Source: Nostoc punctiforme PCC 73102 (GTDB taxonomy: Bacteria; Cyanobacteriota; Cyanobacteriia; Cyanobacteriales; Nostocaceae). From it: a stretch of DNA of 32,000 bases. The translations under genes were made by a program, and so were the position numbers. Below are positions 2,118 through 32,000 of the stretch, one piece after another (within the stretch, counting starts at the first letter, position 1; each line of letters starts with the position of its first letter). The stretch covers positions 3,720,001 through 3,752,000 of the forward strand of contig NC_010628.1 in assembly GCF_000020025.1 (NCBI RefSeq). The letters are read 5' to 3'. The notes beneath the pieces are model-generated. The model had not been told where the DNA came from, did no database searches, and saw only the letters and a list, made by a program, of their open reading frames with translations.

Positions 2118-5100
2118 TTAATTAACTACTTGTGCATTCTCAATACAAGTTCTTAGTTTTTCAGCTAAAACCTGGACATTGGGTTCATTCAGCATTGTTG
2201 CATGGTTTCCTGGAACAACATATATGTCCAATGGTTTAGTAGAAAAATTATCCCAATCCAACCTTGTATCTTCTAAACTCTCAGAGTTTTCAGACGATAC
2301 ATTTTCAGTCTCGCTAGATATGAAGCAGGTAATTTTATTTTCATAAATATTTTGCGTTGTATAAACTATTTGCATATTAGTCTTGTAAACTTGCATTAAA
2401 CCACGAAGTTGTTTAATACCAATACCAGCAGGTAGTAGATTAGCCATTTGTAAGCGCTCTTGGAAGTATTGTAATTGTGTATCTGGTGTCAAAGACTGGA
2501 GAATTTCGTAAGATATCTCTAAGCTTTTTCCATAGAATTGCTCAAATAAGAAGCCAATCTCGTTTAGCCAATCAGCATCATCAATCTCAACATTTTGTTG
2601 AACAGTATCAATATTATCTATATTCTCTGGCGCACCACAGTCCAAAAGTGCAAGTAGAGCTACTTTATGTCCTAGCTTTTGTAACTGGCAAGCCATTTCA
2701 AAAGCTACCATGCCTCCTAAAGAATGACCTCCCAAAAAATATGGGCCTTCGGTTTGAACGGACTGTATAGCTTGAATATAATGTGTTGCCATTTCTTCAA
2801 CACTTGTATGGGGTGTTGATTCCCCATCAAGACCGAGTGCCTGGAGTGCGTAAAACGGTTGATCTCGACCTAAATGATGGGCTAGATTGTATAAATAGAT
2901 GCTATTGCCACCAGCGCCAGGAATACAGAAGAAAGGTCGCTTATAACCATTAGACTGAATTGGTACTAAGGACGACCAACTTAATGTATCCATTGGCTGA
3001 CGAAGAATACTTCCTAGATTTTCAATGGTTGAGTTTTGAAAGAGGACTGCCAAAGGCAGAACTTTACCAAATTGCTGTTCAATCTTAGCCATCAATTGGA
3101 CAGCTAGAAGCGAATGACCACCGAGGTCAAAGAAGTCATCCTTTACCCCTATAGGATAGATATTTAGAATTTCTGACCAGATTTGTGTTAGTTGCTGTTC
3201 AACAATATCTAGAGGTGGAACAAAACTAGTGTCTATAGTTAGGCTATTTATATCAGGTACAGGTAAAGCGCGACGGTCTATTTTGCCGTTAGGAGTCAGG
3301 GGCAAAAACTCCAAGAGAACGAAAGCCGAAGGAATCATATAATCAGGCAGACTTGACTTTAAAAAGCTTCGCATTTCAATAATTGTGGGTGTCTGCTCTT
3401 GATATGGCACAAAGTAAGCAACTAAGCGTTTATCACCCTTGATATCTTCTCTAACTATGACCGTAACTGCCTGTAGCTGTGGGTGTTGGCTCAGTATTGC
3501 CTCGATTTCTCCTAACTCAATGCGGAAGCCACGAAGTTTAACTTGGCGATCGCTCCGCTCTAAGTATTCAATATTGCCATCACTTAAGTATCGAGCTAAG
3601 TCACCTGTTTTGTAAAGACGTGCGCTCTCTTGTTGGCTAAAGGGATTGGCAATAAATTTTTCTTGTGTCAATTCAGGGCGGTTGAGATAACCGCAAGAGA
3701 CACCAGAACCACCAATGTACAGTTCACCAGAAATACCAATTGGTACTGGCTTTTGGTACTGGTCTAGGATGTAAATTTGAGTGTTAGCAAAGGGTTCTCC
3801 AATGGGGACTAGTCCATCGCTCAACAAGCTGACTGCGGCAGTTTCAAAATAGGAACTGTCAATAGTAGCTTCAGTCACTCCGTAAGAATTAATCAACCGA
3901 GTTTCATTGCTAATAAAACGCTGGAACTGCTGATAGTCCTTGATATACCAGCTATCTGAACCAACTATTAACAATTTCATAAAACTCAGGTCTTGCTCTG
4001 TTCTCTCAAGATATTGAATCAAGTTTCTGAGTACAGCTGGCACAAACTCTGCACAATCAATGCTTTGTATTTGCATTAAATGATAGAGTTTTTCTGGTTC
4101 TAAAAGTAATTCCCGTGGGCAGATAACTAATTTACCACCAGAACAAAGCGATCGCACTACATCCCCAGAAAACACATCAAAGGAGAAACTGGCCATTTGT
4201 AAATGACTAGTACACAAGCTTCGCAGTTGGTAAGCATCTTCCCAAGCTAAATATGCGTTGACTAGATTTTGATGAGTGACCATGACTCCTTTGGGCTGAC
4301 CTGTTGACCCTGATGTATAAATTACATAAACTAAATTTTTTGAGGTAGTATGATTGACTAAATTAGTCTCGCTATGTTGAGTGATTAAGCTCCAGTCACT
4401 ATCTAAGTAAACCACTTTTGCTTGATGTTGCGGTAGCTGCTCAATTAGTCGCTGTTGAGTAAGCAGTACCGAAACTTGAGAATCTAACAACATATAACTC
4501 AGACGCTCAGAGGGATAATTGGGGTCAAGAGGTACATAAGCCCCACCTGCTTTGACAATTGCCAATATTCCTACCACCATCTCTAAAGAACGTTCCACAC
4601 AAATTCCCACTAGCACGTCTGGTTTGACACCTAAAGTCTGTAGGTAGTGCGCTAGTTGATTAGCTCGTAGATTCAGTTCCCGATAAGTAAGTTGTTGGTC
4701 TTCAAAGACAACTGCCACGGCATCTGGAGTCAGCTTTACCTGCGCTGCAAACAACTCATGAACACATTGATTCTGCGGATAATCTTTTTGCGTATCGTTC
4801 CATTCCCAAAGTAATTGCTGTTGTTCTGATGCTGTCAGCAGTGGTAATTCCCAAAGTTGCTGTTCTTGATTTGCTGCCATTCCTTCGAGTAAGGTTTGGA
4901 AGTGTCCCAGCATCCGGGTAATTGCATCAGCATCAAAGCGATTACTGTCGTAGTTAATACTTAAAAGTAATCGTAAGCCAGGAACAGATGTCACTGTTAA
5001 AGGATAATCTGTGATTTCCATACCTGCTTGGACATTAGAGACATCCAAGCTGCCATTTTGTTGTTGCACAGCAGCATCTACAGGATAATTTTCAAATACA

Positions 5101-8100
5101 ACTATGCTCTCAAACAAAGGCATACTCCGTGGTACTTCACTCCAACCCTGAATTTCCACCAGTGGAGTATAAGAGTATTGCTCACACTCCACCTGTTGCG
5201 CCTGTAATTCCTTCAACCAAGGCAACAAATTCATCTCTGCTGGGACAGACACTCTTACTGGCAAAGTATTAATGAACAGCCCCACCATCGATTCCACCCC
5301 CATCAAGTCTGGTGGGCGACCGGAAACAGTAGCACCAAAAACTACATCAGTTTCCCCACTATAACGAGATAGTAAAATCGACCATGCTCCCTGCACGAGA
5401 TTGTTGAGCGTTAATTGATGGTTTTTGGCAAAAGCTTGCAGAGCGGCTGTAACTGGCTCAGATAAATGAATTTCTTGTTCGCTGTAACCAGATTGTTGCT
5501 GGCGATTAGTCAGTGGTTTATCCACCATTAAAGGAGTTGGCGCAGTAAAACCTTGAAGCTTTTGCTGCCAAAATCTCTGTGCTTCTGCTAAATCCTGCTG
5601 CTGTAACCAGGCGATGTAGTTTTTGTAAGCTGCGATCAGTTCAAAACGGAAACTTTTCCCTTCACAGATGGCCTCATACAACTCAAATACTTCTTTAAGA
5701 ACCAAAGGTAAAGACCAGCCATCAAGTAGTAAATGATGATGACTCCAAATAAATTGATATCTATCTGCATCCAATTGGATGAGATTCAGGCGTATCAATG
5801 GGGCAAGTGAAAGTTGAAAACCGCGCCGCGCTTCAGATTCTAAGAAAATATTTAACTTATTTTGCTGTTCAAGAGCAGACAATTCTTGCCAATCATCAAT
5901 TACCAAAGGTAGCTTCACTTGACGATACACTACTTGGAGGGGCTGGTGATGATTTTCCCAGATGAACCCAGTACGGAATACCGAATGTCTGTCTATCACT
6001 TGCTGCCAAGCTTGTTCAAAGTTTTCGATTTTTAAGTTGCCCTTGAATGTACAACTCAACTGCTCAAAATACGCTCCCGATTCAGGGGCATACAAACTAT
6101 GAAACAGCATCCCTTGTTGCATGGGTGACAGGGGATAAATATCTTCCAGATTTTGATATTTAATTTTGCTTAATTGGACATCAAGTTGTGCTTGAGTCAA
6201 CTTAGCTAAGGGGAAATCGCTAGGAGTATAACCCCCAGCATCAGGAGATAAACAATGAGCTATTAATGCTTGCAATGTTTGAATAAACTCATTCGCCAGG
6301 TTTTCAACTGTGGATTGTTGATGGATATTGCTGCTATAAGTCCAATCTATTTGCAGTTGACCTTCAGAAATTAATCCACCAATATCTAATAAGTGAACTC
6401 GGCAACTTTGCAAACTTTGGCTTGCTCCCACAGGTTCATCAGCTAATTTAAATCCAGATGATGTATCTAAAGCTTGGTCAAATTGTCCCAAATAGTTGAA
6501 GCTAATCTGCGCTGGCAAAGATGTCTGTAATTGAGTAGTGATTTCCTTATTTGGATGCAGATAACGCAGTACACCATAACCAATTCCTTTGTGGGGAATA
6601 TGTCGCAACTGTTCTTTAACTAACTTTAATGTCTTACCTAAATTGTCAGTGGCTTCCAGTTCTAACAACACAGGGAAAATCGTGGTAAACCAACCAATAG
6701 TTCGGGATAAATCTACATCGTCAAAAATGTCTTCCCGCCCATGTCCTTCCAAATTTAATCGCACTAAGTTAGAGCCAGTCCATTTACTGATAACCTGCGC
6801 TAAAGCAGTCAGCAATATATCATTAATTTGGGTATTATAAACTCTTGGGACTTCTTGTAAGAGTGCTTGGGTTTCTAGCGCATTCAATGATACTGACACC
6901 AACCGTGCAGATGTGACAATATTCGACCCATTCACATAATCTACAGGTATCGGGAGAACTGGTTTTTGGGAACAGTTGAGCCAGTATATGAGTTCTTCTG
7001 TAAGTGCATCTGATTTTGCATACTCACTCAACCTTTGCGCCCAATATTGATAGGATGTGGTTTTGGTAGATAGCCCAATTGCTTCACCACGACTTAGCTG
7101 CTGATAACCTGTCTGCAAATCATCTAATAATATTCGCCACGAAACACCATCTACAGCTAGGTGATGTATTATCAACAGTAATCGACTAGATTGGTTAGTA
7201 CCAAACTTAATCAGTAATGCTTTGAACAATGGCCCAGTAGAGAGGTTGAGTTGGACTTGGAGTTCGCCGCCAATATTTTCCAAGGCTGCTAATTGCTCTT
7301 GTGGTGAAATGGTGGATAAATCTACCACACTCAAAGACACTGCTTCTTCAAAATCTGCGTTTACTTGCTGCCAACTTTCTTCCTTTAGCGTAAACCGCAA
7401 GCGTAGTGCATCATGATGCACCAGTAATTGCTGTAAGACCCGCTTTAAGAGTTCTGGTTTTAGGTCTGATGGTACTGAGAGCAGGACTGATTGATTATAG
7501 TGATGGGGTTCGGGCTGATTTTGCTCAAAAAACCAGTGTTGAATCGGTGTTAGGGGTACAAGTCCTGTGACTAAACCTTGTTGTGCTTGGATTTTTCTGG
7601 TTGTACCTGCCACTGCTGCTAACAGAGCAATTGTCTGATGTTCAAACAACTGCTTGGGACTTAAATGAACTCCGGCGAGATTGGCTCTGGCAATAATTTG
7701 TAGACTGAGGATAGAATCGCCACCGAGTTCAAAGAAGTTATCATGAATCCCTATTTGTTCTACTCCTAGCACCTCTGCCCAAATTTTACTAAGCATCTGT
7801 TCTATCGGTGTTCGGGGAGCTACAAACCTGTTTTCCAGTTCCCGCCCTGATTCTGGTGCTTTTAAGCCACTGCGGTCTACTTTGCCGTTAGATGTCAGTG
7901 GTAAGACATCCAAAAACACAAAGGCTGCCGGAATCATGTACTGGGGTAGCTTTGAACCCAGGAATTGCCGCAGCTCATTGACGCTGATAGCAAGCTGTTG
8001 ATTGAGTACCAAGTAAGCAACTAAGCGTTTATCACCAGGGTTATCAACTCTAGCTAGAACTACAGTTGCTTGAACATCGGGATGTTGACTAATTGCGGCT

Positions 8101-11100
8101 TCAATTTCTCCCAATTCGATGCGGAAACCGCGAATTTTCACCTGGTTGTCGATGCGTCCGAGATATTCTAAGTCACCATTGCCAAGATATCTGGCTAAAT
8201 CCCCAGTTTTGTACAATCGGGCATTTGGGTCATCATTAAAGGGGTGGGCAACAAATACTTTCGATGTCAACTCTTCTCGATTGAGATAACCACGGGCTAA
8301 CCCTGCACCCCCCACGTACATTTCCCCAGGAACGCCCATCGGCAGTAATTGCCTATTTTGATCTAAGATATATACCTGTAAATCTGGGATAGGACAACCA
8401 ATCACACTGCCAGCATTGCTGCTCAAATCTGCGATGGTGATGGGACGATAAGTTACATGAACGGTGGTTTCGGTAATTCCATACATATTCACCAACTGCG
8501 GCAATTTGTCTCCGTGGCGCTCAAACCACGGTTTTAAGCTTTGAAGTTCTAATGCTTCGCCGCCAAAGATTACCCATCGCAGAGCTAAACTTTCTGATGT
8601 CTTTATAAGTTCCTCAGTTTGTATCAACTGCCCGAAGGCTGAAGGTGTTTGATTTAAGACTGTTACTTGTTGTTTGCAAAGTAATTGATAGAAGTCAGCC
8701 GGAGAACGACTTATCCAGTAGGGTACAATTACTAATCGCCCACCTTTGATTAATGCTCCCCAAATTTCCCACACTGAAAAGTCAAAGGCGAAGGAGTGGA
8801 ACAGCGTCCATATATCGTCTTGATTGAAGTGAAACCATTCTTCTGTAGCAGTAAATAGCCGCACAATATTGGCGTGATTAATTAAGACACCTTTGGGTTT
8901 ACCTGTAGAGCCAGAGGTGTAAATGATGTAAGCGAGGTTGTCTGGTGTGGTAAGTCTTGGAGGGTTGTTTGCACTTGATTGAGCGATGAAGTCCCAATCG
9001 CTATCGATGCACAAAATTTGCGCTTGATTTTCGGGAAGATTTGGCAGTAGTTGCTGTTGGGTTATTAATACTTTGACTTGGGAATCTGCTAGGGTAAAGC
9101 TGAGTCGTTCTTGGGGGTAATTGGGGTCAAGCGGTACGTAAGCTCCTCCGGCTTTGAGAATTCCTAAGATGCCGATAAGCATTTCTATGGAACGTTCGAC
9201 ACAAATACCGACTAAGATATCTGCACTTACACCCAAACTTCGCAAGTGGTGGGCTAGTTGATTGGCTTTTGTGTTTAATTCTTGGTAAGTAAGTTGCTCG
9301 TTTTCATATACAATTGCGATCGCATCTGGGCTACGCTCTACCTGCAATTCAAATAACTCATGGATGCATTGATTTGGGAGTTCTTTGATTTGTGTGTTTT
9401 CGGATTCTTTGAGTAATTGATTTTGCTCGGTTTTTGTCAGTAGAGGTAATTTCCAAAGTCGTTGAGTTGGCTGGGTTGCAATTGCAGTAATTATTGTCTG
9501 CAAATGTCCTAGCATTCGGGTTATGGTGGCAACTTCAAAGCGGCTAGTGTCATAACTGATACTGATGGACAATTCCGAACCGGGAGCAGCTAGGAGTGTG
9601 AGAGGATAATTTGTTTGTTCTATGCAGTGAATATCAAAAATATCTAGGTTGCTATCCTGTTCTTGCATAGAAGCATCAACTGGATAATTTTCAAATACCA
9701 CAATGCTCTCAAATAGAGGCATTCCCCCTGGTATTTCGCTCCAACCTTGAATTTCTACTAGTGGAGTATAAGAGTATTGCTCAGATTCTACTTGTTGTGC
9801 TTGTAATTCTTTGAGCCAAGGTAATACTTCCACGTCTTCGGGAATAGTTATTCGCACTGGCAAGGTGTTGATAAATAATCCTACCATTGATTCTACCCCC
9901 AGTAGCTCTGGTGGACGACCAGAAACAGTCGCTCCAAAGACGATATCTGTTTGCCCACTGTAACGGGAGAGCAATAGCGCCCATGCTCCTTGGATGAGGT
10001 TGTTGAGCGTGAGTTTATGTTGCTTGGTGAATGTCTGGATGTTTGCGATCGCATCCCCACCAATCTGCATTTGCTGGGTGTTATAGTTTGACTGGTTCGT
10101 TCGCTTGCTTAATGGAATTTCAACTGTTAACGGCGTTGGTACACTAAACCCGTTTAATTTTTCTTGCCAAAATACTTTTGCTTGTTCTAAATCCTGTTTC
10201 TGTAACCAGGCGATGTAGTTCCTGTAAGGAAGACTCGGTTTGTCGTTGAAATTTCTCCCTTGACAAATGGCTTCGTAAAACTCGAATACTTCCTTAAGAA
10301 CTAAAGGTAATGACCAGCCATCAAGCAATAAATGGTGGTGGCTCCAAACGAATTGATATATATCTGCATTCAATTGAATCAGATTCAGACGCATCAATGG
10401 TGCAAGTGAAAGTTGAAAGCCTTGCTGCTGCTCAGATTTGATAAAAATTTCTAGCTTATCTTGCTGTTCGCTAGGAGATAGTAAACGCCAGTCGTTAATT
10501 TCCAAAGGTAATTTTACCTGGCGATATACTACTTGTAGGGGCTGGTGATGATTTTCCCAAATAAAAGCTGTGCGGAAAATTGAATGCCTAGCGATAACTT
10601 GCTGCCAAGCTTGCTCAAAAGCTGGTAATTCTAAGTTGCCTTTTAAGGTACAACTTAACTGCTCAAAATATACTCCTGACTCTGGCTCATACACACTATG
10701 AAAAAGCATTCCTTCTTGCATGGGTGAGAGTGGATAAATATCTTCGAGATTTTGATATTTTATTTTGTCTAGTTCTGCATCAAGTTGCTTTTGGGTGAGT
10801 TGAGCTAAAGGAAAATCAGTAGGAGTGTAACCGCCAGCTTCAGGAGATAAACAATGAGCTATTAATGCTTGCAACGCCTGGATAAACTCTTGAGCTAGAT
10901 TTTCAATTGTGGTGTGTTGATGAACATTGTTGCTGTATGTCCAATTTATTTGCAATTGACCGCCGACAATTAATCCGTTAATCTCTAGTATATGACTGCG
11001 ATCACTATACAAACTTTGACTAGCCCCAGCAGATTCAGTTGCTAATTGAAAACTACCAGATGTACTCAAAGCTTGATCGAATTGTCCCAGATAATTGAAG

Positions 11101-15494: not shown

Positions 15495-15503
15495 TTAAAG
15501 CTT

Positions 15504-15508
15504 TTCCT
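15504..15508 (-). promoter_or_regulatory. Weak Shine-Dalgarno sequence (AGGAA) of the terminating NRPS gene
   Basis: The minus strand reads ATAGGAAAAGCTTTAA-ATG, with AGGAA 9 nt upstream of the ATG at 15494. Confidence 0.45.
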
Positions 15509-15631
15509 ATATGAATTGATGCGTTACTGATTGATGAATGGTATGAATATGAATTTTATTTCGCGCAAAGGCAAGAGTTTTAAACACTCGATTTGTAAAT
15601 TTTATCCTTTGATTTTGCAACGCCGATTTGA

Positions 15632-23200: not shown

Positions 23201-26200
23201 CTGTTGCCAATTGTTGAATTTCAATTTCTCGTTCATCTGCTGGCAAATCCTGTAAGTCTATCACTGTCATTGTCCAAGAACTTACAGGGCGGATAATTTG
23301 CACCGCCTCCCCTGCTTGAGTGATGAAGTTGGTACGTAAAGCTTCATGACGACGGATGATTTCACTGAGGCTTTGTTCTAGCGCTGCAACATTCAGTTGA
23401 CCTTGAAAACTTACTGCGCCTGGGATGTTATATGCAGCACTATTTGGATCTAACTGGTTGAGGAACCATAAACGCTGTTGAGCAAATGAAAGGGGGATGT
23501 TTTCATTTCTAGCTACAGGTTGCAGAGGTGGTATTAATAATTCTGATGAGTTTCGTTGATATTGCTGAATATATTCAGCTAAATTGGCGATCGTCGCAGC
23601 TTCAAATAGACTACGTAAAGGTAACTCTATTTTAAAGGTAGTTCTGATTCGGGAAACAAGTTGAGTTGCCAATAACGAATGTCCGCCCAATTCAAAAAAG
23701 TTATCGTAAACACCTATTTGTTCTACTCGCAGCACATCAGCCCAAATAGGTGCTAATATTTCTTCGATGGGTGTGCGTGGGGCAACAAAATTAACTTCTA
23801 ATTCCCGAAGTGTTTCTGGCAGTGGTAAGGCGCGACGGTCTACTTTGCCATTAGGAGTTAATGGGAGAGTTTCTAAGAATACAAAAGCCGAAGGAATCAT
23901 GTACTCAGGCAACTTTGAACCCAGAAATTGCCGGAGTTCATTTATTGTTGGTGTTGGTTCTTGATTGAGTGCAAGGTAAGCGACTAAGCATTTATCACCT
24001 GGAGTATCTTCACGGGCAATTACTGTTACCTGTAATATTGCTGGGTGTTGGCTCAGTATTGCCTCTATCTCTCCCAACTCAATACGGAAGCCGCGAATTT
24101 TAACTTGGTGATCTATCCGTCCTAAATACTCGATATTCCCATCAGGTAAATAACGCGCTAAATCCCCAGTTTTATATAATTTTGAATTTTGAATTTTGAA
24201 TTTTGAATTATTAAAAGGGTTGGGGATGAATTTTTCTTGTGTCAAATCAGGGCGGTTAAGATAGCCTTGAGCTACACCAGCACCACCGATATGCAACTCA
24301 CCTGGAACACCAATCGGCACAGGTTGGAGATAACTATCAAGGATATAAGCTTGAGTATTAGGAATGGGACGACCAATAGGGGGTTTATCGGAGCGCTCGC
24401 CATTGCCACATTCTGCTACAGTTGCACAGACAGTAGTTTCCGTTGGTCCATAAGCGTTGAAGAAACGTCGCCCAACTGACCATTGCTTAATCAAGTCAGG
24501 AGCGCAAGCTTCACCCGCCACAATGATGTTCTGTAATGCCGGAAGTTCTGCTTGTGGTAGAACTGCTAACGCCGATGGTGGCAAGGTAATGTGGGTAATC
24601 CCATAGTCGCGTAATAATTCAATTAATTCCAAACCAGGTAAAAGAGACTCTTTAGTTCCTAAATACAGCCTTGCACCTGAACCCAATGCCATCACCACTT
24701 CCCAAATTGATGCGTCAAAGCTAAAAGAAGCAAATTGCAGAATCCGACTTGAGGGCAGTAAATCAAACAAATCAATCTGGGCTTGAGCTAAGTTGCATAA
24801 CCCGGAATGTTTCACCATCACACCCTTGGGTTTGCCTGTTGAGCCGGAGGTGTAAATCACATTTACTAAATCCGAGTCTTTCACCCCACTAATTGGATTT
24901 TCTTGGCTGTGTTGGATAATTTGTTCCCAACTTTCATCAATGACTACCAGTGTGGCTTGATGCTCAGGTAATCTTGCAACTAATCGGTGTTGTGTCAGCA
25001 GCAGCGACACTTGAGAATCTGACAAGATATGAGATATTCGTTCTTGGGGATACTCCGGGTCAATCGGTACATAAGCACCACCCGCTTTCAGAATCCCTAA
25101 TAATCCTACTAGCATTTCTAAAGAACGTTCGACACACAGACCAACTAACACATCAACTCTTACACCTAGAGTCCTTAAATAATGGGCTAAGTGGTTCGCT
25201 TGTTGATTTAGTTCTCGGTAAGTGAGTTGTTGATTTTCAAACACCAATGCCACTGCATCGGGGGTGCGTTCCACCTGCATTTCAAAAAACTGATGAATGC
25301 AGATGTCTTGGAGATAGTTTCTTTGCGTATCATTCCATTCTTCTAGCAGCTGGTATTGCTCTTGTGTAGATAAGCCGGAACATAACTCGTAGCTTTCCAG
25401 TGGCTCCTTCACCATTGCATCCAGGGTTTTTACATAATAGCTACTAATAGCTTTTATTTGTTCTCTACACAACTCAGAGGCATCGTAAGCAAAACCAACT
25501 TCTAATTCAGACGAGCCGGGATTCAGCTTAAAGTTAACTGCCAAAGTAAAGTTTGTTTCTTCAACAGACTTTAATCCTAGTAACTCTACATTATTATTGA
25601 GTTCTATGACTGTTTGATATACATGGAAATGCACGAAATTAAAGATAATCTCAAACAAAGGTTGACCACCCAGAATCCTCTGTAATTGCCCTAGAGGATA
25701 TCGGCGAAAAGGTAGCAGCTCCACCTCTGCATCAAATACTTGTCTTATCAAGTCTACCCAAGTGCCTCCAGACAGGTTTAGACGAAATGGCAAGCTATTG
25801 AGGAAGAGTCCCAAAACTTGCTCACTATCAGTCTGTTCTGGTCTTCCATTGGCGACTAAACCTGTTAATACATCAACTTGGTTGCTAATTATACTTAAAA
25901 CTCGCACATGTGCAGCCAATAGCACACTTTTGAGGGGAACACCTATAAATTGAGCTAGCTTTTGCAAGCCGTTGTAAAGATCCGCAGATAAAGGCACATC
26001 TTGTGTGCCAACTTGCCGGACTTTGGCTTTTTGTTGAGAAGAATACCAACGAGGCACCATAGTTATAGTGCATTCTTTCAACTTTTCTGTCCAATAGTAT
26101 TCATGCTCCTTCGAGCCTAAAGCTTGTCGTTCCAAAGCCACAAAATTGCGGAAGGAACTTGAGGGGGATGGCAAAAGCGGTTGGGCTTTTTGGTTTACAA

Positions 26201-29200
26201 GAGAGAAATAATTCCCAAACAACTCATTCAGCATTGAAGCGACACTCCAGCCATCGAGAATAGCATGGTGTTCAGTGAAGCTAAATTGAAACTCCTCTGG
26301 GCTGTAGCAATGAATTTGAAACCGCAACAAGGGTGATTGTTTCCAGTCAAACTTACGATTTTTTTCCGCTTCAAACCAAGCATCTATTTTCTGTTGTTGC
26401 TCATCAACAGAGAGATGACTTAAATCTTTCATTTGTAAGGGAATGGGAACTTGTCGATGAACTAACTGAAGAGGTTCACTGAAGTTGCTTAAATCAATAG
26501 AAGTCCGCAATATGGGATGACGAGCCACAAGCTGCTCTACAGCAGTCTGGAATTTCTCTAGGTTAAAATGAGCTTGAAGATGGAAACTGCTGACGTTGTG
26601 ATAAACAGCAGTATCTTCGTTAAGTTCGCTGTGGAAAAGCATCCCCATTTGTAGCATGGTTAGGGGATAGGCATCTTCTACCTCATCAGGTAGTTTCTGG
26701 CGGTCTGTTTCAGAAATCAGACTGAAAGGTTTTTCTGATTCAATAATGACTCTACTAACTTCTACAGATTGGAGTTCCTGCACCAGATTAGAAATTGTCT
26801 GATGCACAAACAATTGTTGTAGTGAGAAGCTTAAACCTTGCTTCTGGGACTGGGACTGTACCTGTATACTTCTGATGGAGTCTCCACCTAAAGCAAAGAA
26901 GTTATCATTAATGCCTACCTGTTCGAGTCCGAGAACTTGCGCCCAAATGTCAGTTAGTAGTTTTTCCGTGGGTGTACGTGGCGCAACAAAAGCTTTTTCT
27001 TCTGTTCTTGCTGTATCAGGTACAGGTAAGGCACGACGGTCTACTTTACCGTTAGATGTTAGTGGTAGGCTGTCCAAGAAGACAAAAGCCGCAGGTATCA
27101 TATACTCAGGCAGCTTTGAGTCCAGGAATTGCCGCAGGTCGTTAACAGTGAGTACTTGTGCCTGATGGATTACTAAGTAAGCAACTAAACGTTTACTTTG
27201 ACTTCGCTCAGTACAAGTATCTCCTGGGGTATCAACTCTGGCGATAACTACGCTTGCTTGCACTTGGGGATGTTGAGTGAGTGCTGCTTCTATTTCTCCC
27301 AATTCGATGCGGAAGCCACGAATCTTTACTTGGTTATCAATGCGTCCCAGATATTCTAAGTCGCCATTTTCTAAATATCTGGCTAAGTCTCCAGTTTTGT
27401 ACAGACGGGCATTGGGGTCATCACTGAAGGGATTGGCAACAAATACCTGAGATGTCAATTCTACACGGTTGAGATAACCACGAGCTAACGAAGCACCGCC
27501 GACATACATTTCTCCAGGAACACCTATCGGTAATAATTGTTTGGCTTTATCCAGGACATAAACCTGTAAGTCAGGGATGGGGCAACCAATGACACTGCCA
27601 GTATTGCTGCTCAAATCTGCGATAGTGATGGGGCGATAGGTGACATGAACGGTAGTTTCTGTGATTCCGTACATATTCACCAACTGCGGATACTTATCTC
27701 CATGTCTCTCAAACCAAGGTTTTAAGCTTTGTATTTCTAACGCTTCGCCACCAAAGATTACCCATCTTAGAGCTAAGTTTGCTGGTGTGTCGATGAGTTG
27801 TTCTGCTTGAATCAATTGGCGAAAGGCGGAGGGTGTTTGATTTAAGACTGTGACTTTTTGTTTATCTAATAATTTTAAGAAGTCTGCGGGGGAACGACTC
27901 ACCCAGTAAGGTACTACTACTAATCGCCCGCCTTTGATTAATGCTCCCCAAATTTCCCAGACTGAAAAGTCAAAGGCGAAGGAGTGAAATAGTGTCCATA
28001 CATCTTGTTGATTGAAGTAAAACCATTCTTCTGTGGCAGTAAATAGTCGCACGACATTGGCGTGATTAATTAATACGCCTTTGGGTTTTCCTGTGGAGCC
28101 TGATGTGTAAATTATGTAAGCTAGATTGGCAGAGGTGGTGACAATTTGGGGGTTTTGTACACTTTGTTGGGCAATAATTTCCCAGTCGGCATCAATACAT
28201 AAAACTTGTGCTTGATGGGCGGGGAGTTTGGATAGTAGTTGCTGTTGGGTTATTAGTACTTTGACTTGGGAATCTTCTAGGCTAAAGCTGAGTCGTTCTT
28301 GGGGATAATTGGGGTCAAGGGGTACATACGCTCCTCCGGCTTTGAGAATTCCTAAGATTCCTATTAGCATTTCTATGGAACGCTCTACGCAGATGCCGAC
28401 TAATATTTCTGCTCCCACTCCCAGATTTCTTAAGTGGTGTGCTAGTTGATTGGCTCGATTATTTAATTCTTGGTAGGTGAGTTGCTCGTCTTCATAGACA
28501 ATTGCGATCGCATCTGGGCTACACTCTACTTGCAATTCAAATAACTCATGGATACACTGCTCTTGAAAATAGGTAGTTTGCGTGTTGTTCCACTCCGACA
28601 GCAGTTGATTTTCTTCGGTTTTTGTGAGTAAAGGTAATTCGTTTAGGTGTTGATGGGGGTTAGCTGCTAAACTTTCCAGTAATATCTGGAAATGCCCCAG
28701 CATCCGGCTGATTGTAGCTGCATCAAAGCGATCGCTATCATAGCTGATGCCTACTGATAATTGTCTACCAGGAATAACTGCCAAATTTAGAGGATAATTT
28801 GTGCGTTCAATGCTCCGAACATTAGAAATATTGATGCCGTTGTTCTGTTCAGAAGCATCAATTGGATAATTTTCAAATACTACAATGCTCTCAAATAGAG
28901 GCATTCCCTTTGGTATTTCAGTCCAACTTTGAATTTCTACTAGTTGGTTATATGAGTGTTGCTCACGCTCTACTTGCTGTGCCTGTAATTCTTTGAGCCA
29001 AGGCAATACTTCTATCTCTGCTGGTACAGAAACCCGGATTGGCAAGGTATTGATAAACAATCCCACCATCGATTCTATCCCGACAATATCTGGTGGACGA
29101 CCGGAGACAGTAGCGCCAAAAATCACATCTACTTCGCCACTGTAACGTGAAAGTAAAATGGCCCATGCTCCTTGGACAAGATTATTCAGTGTTAACTGAT

Positions 29201-29969
29201 GTTGTCGTGTAAAAGCCTGGAGAGCTATTGTTGCTGGCTCTGTTAACTGAGCGTGTTGTGTAGCATAGCTTGAAGGCTGCTCTTGATTCTTGATCAGTGG
29301 TTTATCAACTATTAGAGGAGTTGTGGCAGTCAGTCCCTTGAGTTGTAGTTGCCAAAACCTTTTGGCTTGGGAAATGTCCTGTTTTTGACACCAGTCGATG
29401 TAGTCTTCATAGGGACGAGGTTTGTCTAGGTTTAAATTATTACCCTCATTAAAGGCATCATAGAAGGCAAAGATTTCTTTAATAATTGTTGGTATAGACC
29501 AGCCATCGAGTAGCAAGTGATGATGGCTCCAAACAAAATTATAGGTGTAATCTGCTACCCGAATTAGGGTGCAACGCATTAGTGGAGCTTGGTTAAGTTC
29601 AAAACCTTTGTCTCTATCCGCTTGTAAGAAATTTTCTAATTCTTCTTGCTGTTCGATAGAAGATAGCGATCGCCAGTCATAGTTAGTCCAAGGTAAATTT
29701 ACTATCTGGCGAACTACTTGCAGAGGCTTATTCCGGTTTTCCCAAAGAAACAAGGTACGCAAAACTGGATGGCGTTCTATGACTCGTTGCCAAGCTTGCT
29801 CAAACGCTGAGATATTTAGTTGTCCATTCAAAGAGCAGACTAATTGTTGAAAATATACTCCTGTCTCTGGGGCATAAAGAGTATGAAAAAGCATACCCTG
29901 CTGCATAGGAGAAAGGGGATAAATAGATTCAATGTTTTTGCTATTACTTTTTTTATCAACAACTGCCAT
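20241..29969 (-). CDS. Non-ribosomal peptide synthetase, three modules (C-A-T / C-A-T / C-A-T), 3242 aa
   Basis: This is an uninterrupted ORF with three HHxxxDG motifs, three SGSTGKPKG cores and three carrier motifs. The start is ATG at 29967-29969, with AGGAG 9 nt upstream. The stop is TAG at 20241-20243. Confidence 0.97.
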   Translation of the reverse strand: MAVVDKKSNSKNIESIYPLSPMQQGMLFHTLYAPETGVYFQQLVCSLNGQLNISAFEQAWQRVIERHPVLRTLFLWENRNKPLQVVRQIVNLPWTNYDWRSLSSIEQQEELENFLQADRDKGFELNQAPLMRCTLIRVADYTYNFVWSHHHLLLDGWSIPTIIKEIFAFYDAFNEGNNLNLDKPRPYEDYIDWCQKQDISQAKRFWQLQLKGLTATTPLIVDKPLIKNQEQPSSYATQHAQLTEPATIALQAFTRQHQLTLNNLVQGAWAILLSRYSGEVDVIFGATVSGRPPDIVGIESMVGLFINTLPIRVSVPAEIEVLPWLKELQAQQVEREQHSYNQLVEIQSWTEIPKGMPLFESIVVFENYPIDASEQNNGINISNVRSIERTNYPLNLAVIPGRQLSVGISYDSDRFDAATISRMLGHFQILLESLAANPHQHLNELPLLTKTEENQLLSEWNNTQTTYFQEQCIHELFELQVECSPDAIAIVYEDEQLTYQELNNRANQLAHHLRNLGVGAEILVGICVERSIEMLIGILGILKAGGAYVPLDPNYPQERLSFSLEDSQVKVLITQQQLLSKLPAHQAQVLCIDADWEIIAQQSVQNPQIVTTSANLAYIIYTSGSTGKPKGVLINHANVVRLFTATEEWFYFNQQDVWTLFHSFAFDFSVWEIWGALIKGGRLVVVPYWVSRSPADFLKLLDKQKVTVLNQTPSAFRQLIQAEQLIDTPANLALRWVIFGGEALEIQSLKPWFERHGDKYPQLVNMYGITETTVHVTYRPITIADLSSNTGSVIGCPIPDLQVYVLDKAKQLLPIGVPGEMYVGGASLARGYLNRVELTSQVFVANPFSDDPNARLYKTGDLARYLENGDLEYLGRIDNQVKIRGFRIELGEIEAALTQHPQVQASVVIARVDTPGDTCTERSQSKRLVAYLVIHQAQVLTVNDLRQFLDSKLPEYMIPAAFVFLDSLPLTSNGKVDRRALPVPDTARTEEKAFVAPRTPTEKLLTDIWAQVLGLEQVGINDNFFALGGDSIRSIQVQSQSQKQGLSFSLQQLFVHQTISNLVQELQSVEVSRVIIESEKPFSLISETDRQKLPDEVEDAYPLTMLQMGMLFHSELNEDTAVYHNVSSFHLQAHFNLEKFQTAVEQLVARHPILRTSIDLSNFSEPLQLVHRQVPIPLQMKDLSHLSVDEQQQKIDAWFEAEKNRKFDWKQSPLLRFQIHCYSPEEFQFSFTEHHAILDGWSVASMLNELFGNYFSLVNQKAQPLLPSPSSSFRNFVALERQALGSKEHEYYWTEKLKECTITMVPRWYSSQQKAKVRQVGTQDVPLSADLYNGLQKLAQFIGVPLKSVLLAAHVRVLSIISNQVDVLTGLVANGRPEQTDSEQVLGLFLNSLPFRLNLSGGTWVDLIRQVFDAEVELLPFRRYPLGQLQRILGGQPLFEIIFNFVHFHVYQTVIELNNNVELLGLKSVEETNFTLAVNFKLNPGSSELEVGFAYDASELCREQIKAISSYYVKTLDAMVKEPLESYELCSGLSTQEQYQLLEEWNDTQRNYLQDICIHQFFEMQVERTPDAVALVFENQQLTYRELNQQANHLAHYLRTLGVRVDVLVGLCVERSLEMLVGLLGILKAGGAYVPIDPEYPQERISHILSDSQVSLLLTQHRLVARLPEHQATLVVIDESWEQIIQHSQENPISGVKDSDLVNVIYTSGSTGKPKGVMVKHSGLCNLAQAQIDLFDLLPSSRILQFASFSFDASIWEVVMALGSGARLYLGTKESLLPGLELIELLRDYGITHITLPPSALAVLPQAELPALQNIIVAGEACAPDLIKQWSVGRRFFNAYGPTETTVCATVAECGNGERSDKPPIGRPIPNTQAYILDSYLQPVPIGVPGELHIGGAGVAQGYLNRPDLTQEKFIPNPFNNSKFKIQNSKLYKTGDLARYLPDGNIEYLGRIDHQVKIRGFRIELGEIEAILSQHPAILQVTVIAREDTPGDKCLVAYLALNQEPTPTINELRQFLGSKLPEYMIPSAFVFLETLPLTPNGKVDRRALPLPETLRELEVNFVAPRTPIEEILAPIWADVLRVEQIGVYDNFFELGGHSLLATQLVSRIRTTFKIELPLRSLFEAATIANLAEYIQQYQRNSSELLIPPLQPVARNENIPLSFAQQRLWFLNQLDPNSAAYNIPGAVSFQGQLNVAALEQSLSEIIRRHEALRTNFITQAGEAVQIIRPVSSWTMTVIDLQDLPADEREIEIQQLATVAAQQPFDLVNESLIRTTLLAISETENILLFCMHHIVSDGWSMGVFVQEVAELYTAFSQGHLSSLPELAIQYADFAVWQRQWLQGEVKESQINYWREQLAGAPALLELPTDRPRPAVQTFRGTTQSFSLSEELSQALSLLSRQEGVTLFMTLLAAFDTLLHRYTGQTDILVGSAIANRNYSEIEGLIGFFVNTLVFRTDVSGNPSFRQLLERVREVSLEAHTHQDLPFELLVEALQPERDLSHTPLFQVMFVFQNTPTSDIELPGLTLSSLTTESLTAKFDLTLAFENTDQGLVGAWEYNTDLFDTLTIARMIGHFQTLLESIVTNPEQPVSQLPLLTVNEQHQLLNEWNNTQTEYPQNQCIHELFTAQAERNPDLVAAVFGSQQITYQELNSRANQLAHYLRTLGVGTEVLVGIFVERSLEMLVGLLGILKAGGAYVPLDPDYPQERLSLMLADSQVPVLLTQQRLVEKLPEYGQPVVCLDTGWDIINRESTANLHSEVTADKLAYVIYTSGSTGKPKGVAVPHRAVNRLVFNTNYIQLDANDCIAQAANASFDAATFEIWGALLHGARLVGVTHNIALSPQEFAAYIREQEISVLFLTTALFNQLASFVPQAFNTLRYLLFGGEAVDPRWVKEVLQNGAPQHLLHVYGPTESTTFSSWFLIEDVPATATTIPIGQPISNTQIYLLDQNLQPVPIGVPGELYIGGDGLAQGYLNRLELTQEKFIANPFNNSKLYKTGDLGRYLPDGNIEYLARIDNQVKIRGFRIELGEIETALLQHPAIREVVVLAREDISDDACGGLCQRRLVAYIIFELNQTHSISDLRSFLQRQLPNYMIPAAFVFLEQFPLTPNGKIDRRSLPAPDLSAQFAASYVAPRSKIEQAIANIWQEVLQLEKVGIDDNFFDLGGHSLLMVKLTQKLQEFLNQDISLLEMFKYPTISTLAKYLSSEKTDSASDIEKKNNQITDIKAGRNRLKQRLARSSKGANNE
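20255..20259 (-). promoter_or_regulatory. Shine-Dalgarno-like GGGGG for the PKS gene, embedded in the 3' end of the upstream NRPS gene
   Basis: The minus strand reads AAAGGGGGCAAACA-ATG, with the G-run 6 nt upstream of the ATG at 20248. Confidence 0.4.
20370..20588 (-). other. Peptidyl carrier domain T3 (hands off to the PKS KS)
   Basis: FFDLGGHSLLMVKLTQKL; Ser codon at 20478-20480. A basic 40-aa C-terminal tail follows (KAGRNRLKQRLARSSK). Confidence 0.88.
20554..20561. repeat. HIP1 palindrome GCGATCGC
   Basis: Exact 8-mer read in the sequence. Confidence 0.95.
20635..22125 (-). other. Adenylation domain A3, branched-chain aliphatic code (Ile/Val/Leu)
   Basis: The hand-read code is D-A-F-F-L-G-V-T-F-K (FDAATFE, VLFLTTA, LLFGGEA, HVYGPTESTTF; Lys codon 20646-20648). 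It carries a 24-nt in-frame insertion at about 20793-20816. Confidence 0.75.
20793..20816 (-). repeat. 24-nt in-frame insertion of a different sequence family (adds ACGGLCQR)
   Basis: The coding strand reads GATGAT|GCCTGCGGTGGGCTTTGCCAACGC|CGTTTGGTAGCT. The protein reads REDISDD-ACGGLCQR-RLVAY, against RED-x-PGD-KRLVAY in uninterrupted copies. The exact edges are ambiguous by a few nt. Confidence 0.6.
22190..23500 (-). other. Condensation domain C3, LCL-type
   Basis: Contains LSFAQQRLWFLNQLDP and CMHHIVSDGWS (HH codons 23097-23102). Confidence 0.88.
22675..22682. repeat. HIP1 palindrome GCGATCGC
   Basis: Exact 8-mer read in the sequence. Confidence 0.95.
23590..23790 (-). other. Peptidyl carrier domain T2
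   Basis: FFELGGHSLLATQLVSRI; Ser codon at 23676-23678. Confidence 0.9.
23830..25300 (-). other. Adenylation domain A2, Phe-like code
   Basis: The hand-read code is D-A-W-T-I-A-A-V-C-K (FDASIWE, ITLPPS, IIVAGEA, NAYGPTETTVC; Lys codon 23844-23846). This matches 9 of 10 positions of the GrsA Phe code DAWTIAAICK. It contains the heptamer repeat at 24181-24208. Confidence 0.8.
24181..24208. repeat. Perfect tandem heptanucleotide repeat, 4 x TTTGAAT (coding strand ATTCAAA), in frame inside an A domain
   Basis: The four units are 24181-87, 24188-94, 24195-201 and 24202-08. They encode NNSKFKIQNSKLYKTGD. The paralogous position at 21005-21011 has a single unit and encodes NNSKLYKTGD. Confidence 0.95.
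25380..26672 (-). other. Condensation-family domain C2, divergent subtype (unresolved)
   Basis: Contains YPLTMLQMGMLFHSELNEDTAVYHN and FTEHHAILDGWS (HH codons 26265-26270). It has neither the LSFAQQRLWFL start of the two LCL copies nor the PLSPMQxGMLFH...YF(E/Q)Q start of the three DCL copies in this window. Confidence 0.75.
26790..26985 (-). other. Peptidyl carrier domain T1 with epimerase-partner-type core (GGDSI) but no E domain downstream
   Basis: FFALGGDSIRSIQVQSQSQKQGLSFSLQQLFVHQTI; Ser codon at 26877-26879. Confidence 0.85.
27195..27218 (-). repeat. 24-nt dispersed mini-repeat inserted in frame (adds TCTERSQS)
   Basis: The coding strand reads GAT|ACTTGTACTGAGCGAAGTCAAAGT|AAA. The paralogous Thr A domain has GAT|AAA uninterrupted at 8040/8041. 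The arms ACTTGTACT and AGTCAAAGT can pair imperfectly. Confidence 0.8.
28504..28511. repeat. HIP1 palindrome GCGATCGC
   Basis: Exact 8-mer, at the same paralogous position (PDAIAIVYE) as 9316-9323. Confidence 0.95.
28728..28735. repeat. HIP1 palindrome GCGATCGC
   Basis: Exact 8-mer read in the sequence. Confidence 0.95.
29666..29673. repeat. HIP1 palindrome GCGATCGC
   Basis: Exact 8-mer read in the sequence. Confidence 0.95.
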
Positions 29970-29978
29970 TTCAATGGA

Positions 29979-29983
29979 CTCCT
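29979..29983 (-). promoter_or_regulatory. Shine-Dalgarno sequence (AGGAG) of the 3242-aa NRPS gene
   Basis: The minus strand reads GTAGGAGTCCATTGAA-ATG, with AGGAG 9 nt upstream of the ATG at 29969. Confidence 0.65.
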
Positions 29984-30043
29984 ACTTTTTTTTTGAACAA
30001 AACTCAATACACCGTTATTTTTTTTACCAGTCCCTTATTTTGT

Positions 30044-32000
30044 TTAATTAATGTCTGCCAATATATCGTCAATATCTTCTTGACTTAACCCAGCTTTGGG
30101 AAAGTCTGAAGGTGTAAATCCGCCAACATTGGGTAACTGGCAATGTTGAATTAAAGTTCGTAAAGCTTCCATAAACTGTCTAGCTAAACGCTCAACTGTA
30201 CTGCGTTGATGAACTTTCTCGCTATACTCCCAATTTATTTGTAGTTCGCCATTCATTACCAATCCGCTTACCTGTAATAAATAATTGCGATATTCTTGGA
30301 GACTATGTTCTGTTCCTCCAGATTCTTGAGCAAATTCCCAAGTAGCGATCGCTGATGATTCTCGGTTAAACTGCCCTAAGTAGTTGAAACTCACTTCTGC
30401 TTTGGGCAAATGCTCTAGTTGCTCTGCATCTTGGCTCAGATAGCGTAAGACTCCATAACCAATACCTCGCATCGGCAAGCGGCGTAATTGCTCTTTGACT
30501 AATTTCAGCGCCTCGCCTGGATTTGTCTCATCTCCTAATTTTAAGTGAACAGGGAACAAAGTTGTAAACCAGCCTACAGTCCGTGACAAATCCACGTCTT
30601 CAAATAGTTCTTCTCGTCCATGTCCTTCAAGGTCAACTAATAAGGAGTCAGAACCAGTCCACTGGGTAAAGCTCTGCATTAAGGCGGTTAGCAGCACATC
30701 ATTAATTTGGGTGTTGTAAACAGCAGGTACTTCCTGTAACAGTGTATCCGTCTCTTCACTACTCAAAGACAATGACACATAAGCAGATGAAGCTATGGTG
30801 TTGGTTTCTTTGGTTGGGGGATAATCTACTGGTAAAGGAGTAATGTTTGTGGCTGATTCAGCTAACCAGTAGTTGATTTCGCTACTGAGTGCGGCTGATT
30901 GAGCATATTTAGTAAGTTGTAAAGACCAATATTGAAAGGATGTAGTCTTAGGAGGTAATTGAATCACCTCAGCGCGAATCAACTGCTGGTAGCCAGTTTG
31001 CAAATCATCCAATAAAATTCGCCAAGAAACACCATCCACCGCCAAGTGATGAATCACCAGCAACAACCGACTCGGCTGATTATCACCAAGAGTAAATAAT
31101 ACTGCTCGCATCAACGGGCCAGTGGATAAACTCAGACTCGCTTGAAATTCACTACCAGCATTCTCCAAAGCAGCTGGTTGTTCCTGTGGCGAGAGAGTGG
31201 ATAAATCAACCACACTCAAAGCCACTGTTTCTTCAAAAGCCGCGTTAAATTGTTTCCAGATAACAGCATCCAGCACAAAGCGCAAGCGTAAAGCATCATG
31301 GTGTAGAAGTAACTGCTGCAAAACCCGTCTTAAAAGTTCCACGTCAAGGTCTGATGGAACTGATAGCAGCACTGATTGGTTGTAATGATGGGGTTGGGGC
31401 TGATTTTGAGCAAAGAACCAATGTTGAATCGGCGTTAACGGCACAATTCCTGTAACTAAATCTTGTTGAGCTTGGATTTTTTTAGTTGTGCCTACCACTT
31501 TTGCTAACTGAGCAATTGTCTGATGCTCAAACAACTGCTTAGGACTCAGTTGCAATCCGGCTTGATTTGCACGAGCAATAATTTGCAGACTAAGGATAGA
31601 ATCACCACCCAATTCAAAAAAGTTATCATGAATTCCTACCTGCTGCGATCGCAGAACCTCAGCCCAAATCAGTGCTAATTTTTGTTCAATAGATGTAGTC
31701 GCCGCTACAAAACTCACTTCTAGTTCCGAGCGCGACTCTGGTATAGGTAAGGCACGACGGTCGATTTTACCGTTGGGTGTCATAGGCAAAGCTGCCAAGA
31801 ACACAAAAGCCGCAGGTATCATATAATCAGGCAGCTTTGAGGTGAGGAATTGCCGCAGTTCTGTCACTGTGGGGGTTTGCTCTTGTTTAAGTACAAGATA
31901 AGCCACTAAGCGTTTGACACCAGGGTCATCTTCCCTAGCAATAACTACTGCTTGGAATACAGCCGGATTTTCGTTGAGAACAGTTTCTATCTCTCCCAAC
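30044..32000 (-). CDS. Non-ribosomal peptide synthetase, 3' part only (..A-T-E); the 5' end lies beyond the right window edge
   Basis: The reading frame is open to nt 32000 and begins mid-motif (E)LGEIE of A8. The leading M in the ORF track is an artefact of a TTG codon. The stop is TAA at 30044-30046. Confidence 0.95.
   Translation of the reverse strand, partial: LGEIETVLNENPAVFQAVVIAREDDPGVKRLVAYLVLKQEQTPTVTELRQFLTSKLPDYMIPAAFVFLAALPMTPNGKIDRRALPIPESRSELEVSFVAATTSIEQKLALIWAEVLRSQQVGIHDNFFELGGDSILSLQIIARANQAGLQLSPKQLFEHQTIAQLAKVVGTTKKIQAQQDLVTGIVPLTPIQHWFFAQNQPQPHHYNQSVLLSVPSDLDVELLRRVLQQLLLHHDALRLRFVLDAVIWKQFNAAFEETVALSVVDLSTLSPQEQPAALENAGSEFQASLSLSTGPLMRAVLFTLGDNQPSRLLLVIHHLAVDGVSWRILLDDLQTGYQQLIRAEVIQLPPKTTSFQYWSLQLTKYAQSAALSSEINYWLAESATNITPLPVDYPPTKETNTIASSAYVSLSLSSEETDTLLQEVPAVYNTQINDVLLTALMQSFTQWTGSDSLLVDLEGHGREELFEDVDLSRTVGWFTTLFPVHLKLGDETNPGEALKLVKEQLRRLPMRGIGYGVLRYLSQDAEQLEHLPKAEVSFNYLGQFNRESSAIATWEFAQESGGTEHSLQEYRNYLLQVSGLVMNGELQINWEYSEKVHQRSTVERLARQFMEALRTLIQHCQLPNVGGFTPSDFPKAGLSQEDIDDILADIN
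30125..31465 (-). other. Epimerization domain
   Basis: Contains PLTPIQHWFFAQ, HHLAVDGVSWRILLDD (HH codons 31046-31051), EGHGREE and FNYLGQFN. Confidence 0.9.
30345..30352. repeat. HIP1 palindrome GCGATCGC
   Basis: Exact 8-mer read in the sequence. Confidence 0.95.
31510..31700 (-). other. Peptidyl carrier domain (epimerase-partner type)
   Basis: FFELGGDSILSLQIIARANQAGL; Ser codon at 31598-31600. Confidence 0.9.
31645..31652. repeat. HIP1 palindrome GCGATCGC
   Basis: Exact 8-mer read in the sequence. Confidence 0.95.
31745..32000 (-). other. C-terminal subdomain of an adenylation domain (specificity pocket off-window)
   Basis: Contains LGEIE, REDDPGVKRLVAYLV, LPDYMIPAAFV and PNGKIDRRALP. 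There is no insertion at the PG-x-KRLVAY junction. Confidence 0.85.

Follow-up and report, generated by a model that had tools for sequence, protein, structure and literature searches.

Which compound is made by the biosynthetic genes that occupy most of a 32,000-nucleotide stretch of the Nostoc punctiforme PCC 73102 genome (NC_010628.1, positions 3,720,001 to 3,752,000; the whole stretch is referred to as the window), and has its pathway already been described? Analysis of the open reading frames (ORFs) revealed that all five long ORFs of the window are carried by the minus strand. Four of them, genes A to D in the order of reading, encode nonribosomal peptide synthetases (NRPS; A, B and D) and a type I polyketide synthase (PKS; C), and the fifth encodes a transporter of the major facilitator superfamily (MFS). 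A hybrid NRPS/type I PKS assembly line, intact and collinear, is very probably encoded here; the window holds its downstream two-thirds, and the line is read from right to left, its upstream end lying past nt 32000. The initial annotation, made from the sequence without database searches, had proposed a single co-directional NRPS-PKS-NRPS line with a thioesterase (TE) and an MFS exporter, and had placed its loading end beyond nt 32000; the direction of the genes agrees with the latter, while Pfam and the core motifs confirm the former, and the core motifs the domain order given for genes A to D.

Pfam identifies three Condensation, three AMP-binding and three PP-binding domains in gene B, and five Condensation-type, three AMP-binding, three PP-binding and one Thioesterase domain in gene D. 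The condensation (C), adenylation (A) and carrier (T) domains form ordered C-A-T modules, and a catalytic PKS, gene C, lies between NRPS genes of the same strand, its start overlapping the stop of gene B by 8 nt. Every module contains the motifs HHxxxDG, TSGSTGxPKG, YKTGD and GG[DH]S[IL], with the A3 motif intact in all A domains; in gene D the C-domain motif reads HHIISDG in the first C domain and HHLLLDG in the second and third. Three epimerisation (E) domains, recognised by the motifs EGHGRE, GWFT and FNYLG, are present in the window. The MFS protein and the products of genes D, C and B are exact matches to ACC81524, ACC81525, ACC81526 and ACC81527, respectively, of N. punctiforme PCC 73102 / ATCC 29133.

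An all-against-all comparison divided the C-like domains of the cluster into four sequence classes. The DCL class, consisting of the three C domains that follow an E domain in the window and two DCL domains of the gene A homologue of a related strain (JGI contig L089), is 59–76% identical among its members. The LCL class comprises the third C domain of gene B (B-C3) and the first of gene D (D-C1), which are 73% identical to each other, and the E domains are 60–69% identical to one another. The second C domain of gene B, designated C*, stands apart, none of the other C-like domains of the cluster being more than 31% identical to it. Against domains of solved structure, the first C domain of gene B (B-C1) scored 514 bits with the McyB N-terminal C domain, 289 with SrfA-C and 272 with TycB1, the donors of which are D-configured, and 103 with the LCL domain TycC6. 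For B-C3 the corresponding scores were 411 bits with Txo2, 294 with TycC6, 150 with SrfA-C and 141 with TycB1. The C domains following an E domain resemble the reference DCL domains more than the LCL domain. This pattern is not due to chance because, in a sample of about 170 loci from other organisms, E motifs were found within 500 amino acids (aa) upstream of 188 of the 218 B-C1-like C domains versus 9 of the 225 B-C3-like ones (independent loci). The earlier statement that every DCL domain follows an E domain is thus upheld by the scores, by the identity classes and by genomic context.

C* directly follows the first module of gene B, the A domain of which carries a Thr code (DFWNIGMVHK). Its best solved match is the McyA C domain 8jbr (510 bits, E 4.5e-152), followed by AmbE 7r9x (237 bits), compared with 115–131 bits for DCL structures and 85 bits for TycC6. 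The McyA domain follows the Ser module whose residue becomes N-methyl-dehydroalanine in microcystin, and AmbE is the dehydrating C domain of characterised structure. C* contains KSVLLAAH (gene B residue 1347) and FRRYP; in the DCL domains of the cluster these columns read NNLVQGAW and EQ(H/Y)SY. Both features are those published for a set of 50 CmodAA domains, in which [K/R]SVLLAAH immediately precedes motif C5 and motif C6 opens with one or two Arg, unlike DCL and dual E/C domains (PMC11342130); a review counts the microcystin domain among the founding members of the CmodAA clade (PMC10880069). The carrier domain preceding C* is E-type (GGDSI) with no E domain after it, and carriers of this type precede E, DCL, C/E and dehydrating C domains (PMC10880069). 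Eighteen homologues of C* in other loci scored at least 353 bits, compared with at most 203 bits for ordinary DCL domains; the A code upstream of them was Thr-type in at least 13 and Ser in one (a Ser/Thr pairing in at least 14/18), and the preceding carrier was always GGDSI. Judged by this family resemblance, C* is a dehydrating C domain of the CmodAA type, and the Thr of gene B module 1 would most likely be converted to dehydrobutyrine (Dhb) before or during its coupling to Phe.

It could be argued that C* is a condensation domain that is merely unusual, or one of the dual epimerase/condensation type, in which case residue 4 would stay Thr (L or D-allo) and not become Dhb. The HHAILDG of C* is a complete condensation motif, and CmodAA, dual E/C and DCL domains share one clade and E-type T domains, such that GGDSI alone does not discriminate among them. 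The scores do, at 510 and 237 bits for the McyA CmodAA domain and AmbE versus only 115–131 bits for the DCL structures, as do KSVLLAAH and the Arg pair, which are reported to be absent from DCL and dual E/C domains, and the association of C* homologues with Thr or Ser modules. The second, N-terminal HH motif of dual E/C domains (HHxxxxxGD) was not found in C*, and a dual E/C identity was rejected for this reason. A Thr retained at this position is considered unlikely, and the CmodAA assignment of C* is preferred.

The likeness of C* to known dehydrating domains extends to AmbE-C2, AlbB-C2/C3 and Crz1-C2, with which it has in common HHxxxDG, the [K/R]SVLLAAH helix, RR at C6 and a position after a β-hydroxy amino acid module, although its score against AmbE is only about 237 bits and its dehydrating activity is a prediction. 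Two domains of the microcystin synthetase stand out: C* is most similar to the C domain of McyA (510 bits), and the DCL domains to the N-terminal C domain of McyB (514 bits), which comes after the E domain of McyA. This likeness is one of single domains only, as the two systems are unrelated in module order, residues and size, and the Thr of the window (to Dhb) would not be N-methylated, unlike the Ser of McyA (to dehydroalanine). Some C*-like domains in other loci follow codes other than Thr or Ser (L044, 20662–22038; L131, 11751–13124; L150, 6188–7567), the code being DSACIAEVWK in two cases and DAWQFGLVQK in one, the latter with the active-site variant CHAIADG. These domains may act on other substrates.

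The substrate codes were read by hand against GrsA numbering and then matched to published tables, and all six of the codes first proposed hold; extraction by pairwise alignment misreads one or two positions. The code of the last A domain of gene D (D-A3), DVGEIGSIDK, is also the ornithine (Orn) code of GrsB and TycC. It is cited as an ornithine signature (PMC3992020). DFWNIGMVHK, found in both B-A1 and D-A2, is identical to the code of Planktothrix cyanopeptolin OciA-A2 and indicates Thr; DAWTIAAVCK (B-A2) differs by one residue from OciB-A6 (DAWTIAGVCK, N-Me-Phe) and indicates a Phe-type substrate; and DAFFLGVTFK (B-A3) is identical to OciB-A5 and OciC-A7 (Ile or Val) and indicates Ile, with Val as a minor alternative (PMC2533009). 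DVEDIGAVEK (D-A1) is identical to Planktothrix ApnA-A1 of genotype b, for which Arg was the sole residue detected (PMC5311044). The residue that had been given as possibly basic is therefore sharpened by this exact match, and the substrate of D-A1 is most likely Arg.

The two Thr modules, gene B module 1 (26730–29969) and gene D module 2 (7545–10784), have identical specificity codes and are 71% identical over 1059 aa of C-A(Thr)-T, with about 77% DNA identity over 2.7 kb. This likeness suggests a duplication or conversion of a module inside the cluster.

The PKS module encoded by gene C has a complete Cys-His-His set in its ketosynthase (KS) domain (Cys179 in TACSSS, HGTAT and NMGHL), and the catalytic Tyr region of its ketoreductase (KR) domain, YSAAN, is present. 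The acyltransferase (AT) domain is of the malonyl type, as initially proposed; it carries GHSIG…HAFH, the motif pair of malonyl-CoA-type AT domains. No dehydratase, enoylreductase or methyltransferase domain was found in gene C. Statine-type modules, such as those of hapalosin, didemnin and the marine cyanobacterial statine peptides, pass an aminoacyl-T intermediate to KS-AT(malonyl)-KR-ACP (acyl carrier protein) and then to an NRPS C domain; gene C resembles them in architecture only. The solved matches of the gene D TE domain are generic type I TEs and are not indicative of hydrolysis versus cyclisation. The MFS protein matches TIGR00900 and the Mef-type models of NCBIfam, in each case below the cut-off. 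A siderophore, which Orn and an EntS-like MFS protein might suggest, was rejected: the EntS model gave only 62 bits where its cut-off is 324, and neither a hydroxylase nor an acyltransferase gene is visible.

The front of the line was read in the related strain. Contig L089 has 98.4% DNA identity to the window over 21.8 kb, and the gene A homologue in it encodes 4607 aa, the last 3319 of which read [..E]-DCL-A(DAWFLGNVVK, Leu)-T-E-DCL-A(DLFNNALTYK, Ala)-T-E. The first ~1288 aa fit the size of a C-A-T module and the start of an E domain, and gene A is thus probably composed of three C-A-T-E modules. Given this size and the two readable modules, the line would incorporate at least nine amino acids and its first domain would be a C domain. 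The earlier figure of at least seven amino acids was a correct lower bound, to which the L089 gene A adds readable modules for D-Leu and D-Ala and about one that is hidden. The opening C domain could be either a starter C domain, which would give a lipopeptide, or the acceptor for a further protein upstream. The C-terminus of gene A (…SDFPKAGLSQEDIDDILADIN) and the N-terminus of gene B (…NIESIYPLSPMQ) look like the usual E-to-C communication pair.

In the proposed route, whose substrates, dehydration, stereochemistry, collinearity, export and biological role are predicted from the identity, order, subtype and code of the domains, the three C-A-T-E modules of gene A would supply X, D-Leu and D-Ala, and the E-terminated end of gene A would pass the chain on to the first domain of gene B, a DCL domain. 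Module 1 of gene B would load L-Thr; the CmodAA domain would then eliminate water from the T-bound peptidyl-Thr to give Dhb and couple it to Phe, after which the LCL domain would add Ile (Val as a minor alternative). Gene C would extend the Ile thioester with malonyl-CoA and reduce the ketone, giving a statine-type 4-amino-3-hydroxy acid. Gene D would add Arg and Thr, both epimerised (D-Arg and D-allo-Thr), and then L-Orn, before the chain is released from the TE, hydrolysed or cyclised, and the Mef-like MFS pump probably exports the product. The predicted chain is X(D)–D-Leu–D-Ala–Dhb–L-Phe–[4-amino-3-hydroxy-5-methylheptanoyl from Ile + malonate + KR]–D-Arg–D-allo-Thr–L-Orn. Calculated from standard residue masses, its eight readable units amount to about 942.56 Da, to which residue 1 and the termini are to be added. 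Compared with the backbone in the initial annotation, the Phe, the aliphatic residue extended by C2 with a β-hydroxyl, the D-Thr (allo) and the Orn are retained, and the first Thr is now most likely Dhb on the CmodAA evidence.

Several points weigh against this prediction. The data begin after the N-terminal ~1288 aa of gene A and the loading and tailoring region, which bears on the N-terminus of the product, a lipid tail and modifications, and the gene A modules were read in a related strain and not in the genome of the window itself. The KR domain of gene C (16202–17449) reads I-A-D-S where B-type domains have LDD, and it lacks the Trp of A-type domains, so that the usual stereochemical rules do not apply and the configuration of the hydroxyl is not predictable. 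Specificity codes give the preferred substrate and not the sole one, assembly lines at times skip or iterate modules, and the dehydration by C* is deduced only from its family membership. The literature searched yielded no chemical, expression or genetic work on this cluster. With these points taken into account, we still consider it likely that the locus is a collinear orphan line making the chain given above.

The possibility that the pathway has already been described, and that the cluster makes a member of a known compound family, deserves weight since the strain has been studied intensively. The nostopeptolide synthetase (nosA-D; Nostoc sp. GSV224 and N. punctiforme) has the same general layout of NRPS genes, a single PKS module that adds C2 to an aliphatic aminoacyl thioester, NRPS, TE and transporter. 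According to Hoffmann et al. (2003), nos reportedly contains no E domains and its product reads Ile/Val-Ser-MePro-LeuAc-Leu-Gly-Asn-Tyr-Pro. By comparison with nos, the line described here has at least five E domains (three in the window), a KR domain, a CmodAA domain, Thr/Phe/Ile/Arg/Thr/Orn codes and an MFS exporter. Identity with the nostopeptolide cluster was rejected since the E domains and the order Thr, Phe, Ile, PKS with KR, Arg, Thr and Orn do not fit it; the difference from the nostopeptolide layout noted at the outset is thereby confirmed by the E domains, the KR domain and the codes. Anabaenopeptin clusters (apt/apn) consist of six NRPS modules and are not known to contain a PKS, and identity with them was likewise rejected, as a PKS gene and at least nine NRPS modules are present here and only the Arg code is common to both. 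Nostopeptolide has been mentioned as a hybrid product of this strain (PMC9315949, PMC10304443), and apnA-E have been described (PMC5311044). Architecture and codes are hence unlike those of the two NRPS products known from the strain.

The searches point in the same direction. There was no compound-specific name among the approximately 360 homologues listed, the closest of which (76–79% identical) have generic names only. No paper was found, within a literature coverage that is incomplete, that names the accessions, the residue combination or new matching peptides from the strain. Most NRPS/PKS clusters of N. punctiforme PCC 73102 are described as being still of unknown product (PMC5088731, PMC9324945), 16 clusters over all classes being counted as orphans in 2022 (PMC9324945), and in papers dated 2016, 2022 and 2026 the majority of its NRPS/PKS clusters are still termed unknown or cryptic. 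That the cluster makes a known compound family therefore appears improbable, slightly more so than a Thr retained by C*. The orphan status first suggested for the cluster agrees with the listed homologues and the literature and is well supported, though not proven. No characterised match was found; the cluster itself is already annotated in GenBank and counted in published inventories, and it is its product that is probably new.

The genes form about 29 kb of uninterrupted frames with all catalytic motifs intact. Between the window and L089, dN/dS is 0.27 for the part of gene A compared, 0.11 for gene C and 0.32 for the part of gene D compared, values which indicate purifying selection; the gene B sequences have 98.0% DNA identity and differ by 77 amino-acid changes. 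A silent or decaying relic without any product is a highly improbable reading of the cluster given these open frames, a dN/dS of 0.11–0.32 against a sister strain with the same gene lengths and a back half kept in Calothrix brevissima NIES-22, even though years of metabolomics on the strain have brought no report of a product, standard culture leaves many of its clusters silent and an IS4 transposase fragment lies just downstream.

Homologues of the PKS with 77–79% identity were found in Nostoc sp. MG11, C. brevissima NIES-22 (77–78% in these two) and two further assemblies. Over 3343 aa, the gene D homologue of NIES-22 is collinear with gene D of the window at 78% identity and shares its Arg and Thr codes, whereas gene D of MG11 is only 49% identical to that of the window. 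Both NIES-22 and MG11 have the same LCL-A(Ile)-T / KS-AT-KR-ACP junction as the window. The front of their gene B, however, reads A(Ala)-T-E-DCL-A(Leu-type)-T in place of A(Thr)-T-CmodAA-A(Phe)-T (loci L086 of NIES-22 and L088/L001 of MG11, compared with window 23500–29969). The MG11 counterpart of B-C3 is 83% identical to it, and the modules that come before are unrelated. The difference between these sister clusters looks like a natural module swap with its breakpoint just upstream of the B-C3 LCL domain. Compared at the level of their domains, the clusters of NIES-22, MG11 and the window are a small family in which the back half is conserved and the front half exchanged.

Table 1 Features of the assembly line and its predicted exporter in the window (positions in nt of the window).
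Feature	Position	Strand	Domains or assignment	Basis
Gene A, NRPS, 3' end only (cut by the window edge, continues beyond nt 32000)	30044–31999	-	..A-T-E	Pfam AMP-binding_C, PP-binding, Condensation
Gene A, A C-terminal subdomain	31766–31993	-		Pfam and motifs
Gene A, T	31496–31681	-	GGDSI	Pfam and motifs
Gene A, E	30122–31450	-	Epimerisation domain	Pfam; motifs HHLAVDG, EGHGRE, TVGWFT, FNYLG
Gene B, trimodular NRPS, ACC81527, 3242 aa	20241–29969	-	DCL-A(Thr)-T-CmodAA-A(Phe)-T-LCL-A(Ile/Val)-T	
B-C1	28623–29954	-	DCL (HHLLLDG); predicted acceptor of D-Ala from gene A	Best solved match McyB N-terminal C domain
B-A1	27000–28541	-	DFWNIGMVHK (Thr)	Hand-read code
B-T1	26775–26972	-	Carrier, E-type LGGDSI, no E domain after it	Motif
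C*	25350–26729	-	CmodAA-type (HHAILDG, KSVLLAAH, FRRYP)	McyA/AmbE solved matches and motifs
B-A2	23835–25292	-	DAWTIAAVCK (Phe-type)	Hand-read code
B-C3	22164–23504	-	LCL (HHIVSDG)	Best solved matches Txo2, Txo1, TycC6
B-A3	20640–22112	-	DAFFLGVTFK (Ile, Val minor)	Hand-read code
Gene C, single-module type I PKS, ACC81526, 1538 aa	15632–20248	-	KS-AT(malonyl)-KR-ACP	Pfam
Gene C, KS	19097–20224	-		Pfam
Gene C, AT	17675–18643	-		Pfam
Gene C, KR	16202–17449	-		Pfam
Gene C, ACP	15743–15928	-		Pfam
Gene D, trimodular NRPS, ACC81525, 4458 aa	2118–15494	-	LCL-A(Arg)-T-E-DCL-A(Thr)-T-E-DCL-A(Orn)-T-TE	
D-A1	12495–13982	-	DVEDIGAVEK (most likely Arg)	Hand-read code
D-E1	10815–12167	-	Epimerisation domain	HHLVVDG, EGHGRE, TIGWFT, FNYLG
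D-A2	7881–9353	-	DFWNIGMVHK (Thr)	Hand-read code
D-E2	6210–7577	-	Epimerisation domain	Motifs and E-class identity
D-A3	3270–4742	-	DVGEIGSIDK (Orn)	Hand-read code
Terminal TE	2157–2936	-	GGHSLGG … GNH	Pfam Thioesterase (E 8e-31) and motifs
MFS transporter, ACC81524	490–1878	-	DHA3/Mef-like	Pfam MFS_1, MFS_3

Two starts compete for the MFS gene, TTG 1878 in the longest ORF (462 aa, the JGI call) and ATG 1824 in the GenBank annotation (444 aa). Only small ORFs and a transposase fragment lie 3' of this gene, which indicates that the cluster ends there. An ORF of 94 aa (window ~1–261, plus strand), which extends to the left of the window (contig L080, 5980–6264), shows similarity to the N-terminal portion of an IS4-family transposase (NF033592, E 0.0016) and is probably a transposase remnant marking the downstream edge of the cluster. 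Three small ORFs of 79, 63 and 73 aa (L080 7159–8716, minus strand there), situated about 0.9–2.5 kb past the left edge of the window, encode a common N-terminal leader, MATIKISDL.PAG..LF.D.ES.L..L…GG, ahead of hydrophobic or Thr-rich cores. Their products resemble precursors of double-glycine-leader bacteriocins or ribosomally synthesised and post-translationally modified peptides, and none of the three has a match in NCBIfam.

The cluster is otherwise a conventional collinear assembly line and implies no new biochemistry. The Thr-specific CmodAA domain is cyanobacterial and has sister clusters that lack it, which makes the family useful for studies of dehydrating C domains and of module swaps. 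N. punctiforme, whose known NRPS product nostopeptolide controls hormogonium differentiation, is the genetic model for plant–cyanobacterium symbiosis, and a concrete structure prediction, with Orn, Arg, Dhb, a statine-type unit and five D-centres expected in the product, provides a mass-spectrometric handle on one of the orphans of this strain. We see about an even chance that the product represents a structurally new family of cyanobacterial peptides, possibly N-acylated, in which a run of D-residues, Dhb and an Ile-derived statine-type unit are joined to a cationic D-Arg/D-allo-Thr/Orn tail, and that the exchange of Thr-CmodAA-Phe for D-Ala-Leu between the sister clusters is a natural module exchange around a dehydrating C domain; such a peptide might be protease-inhibitor-like or act as a membrane-active signal in the free-living or symbiotic state.

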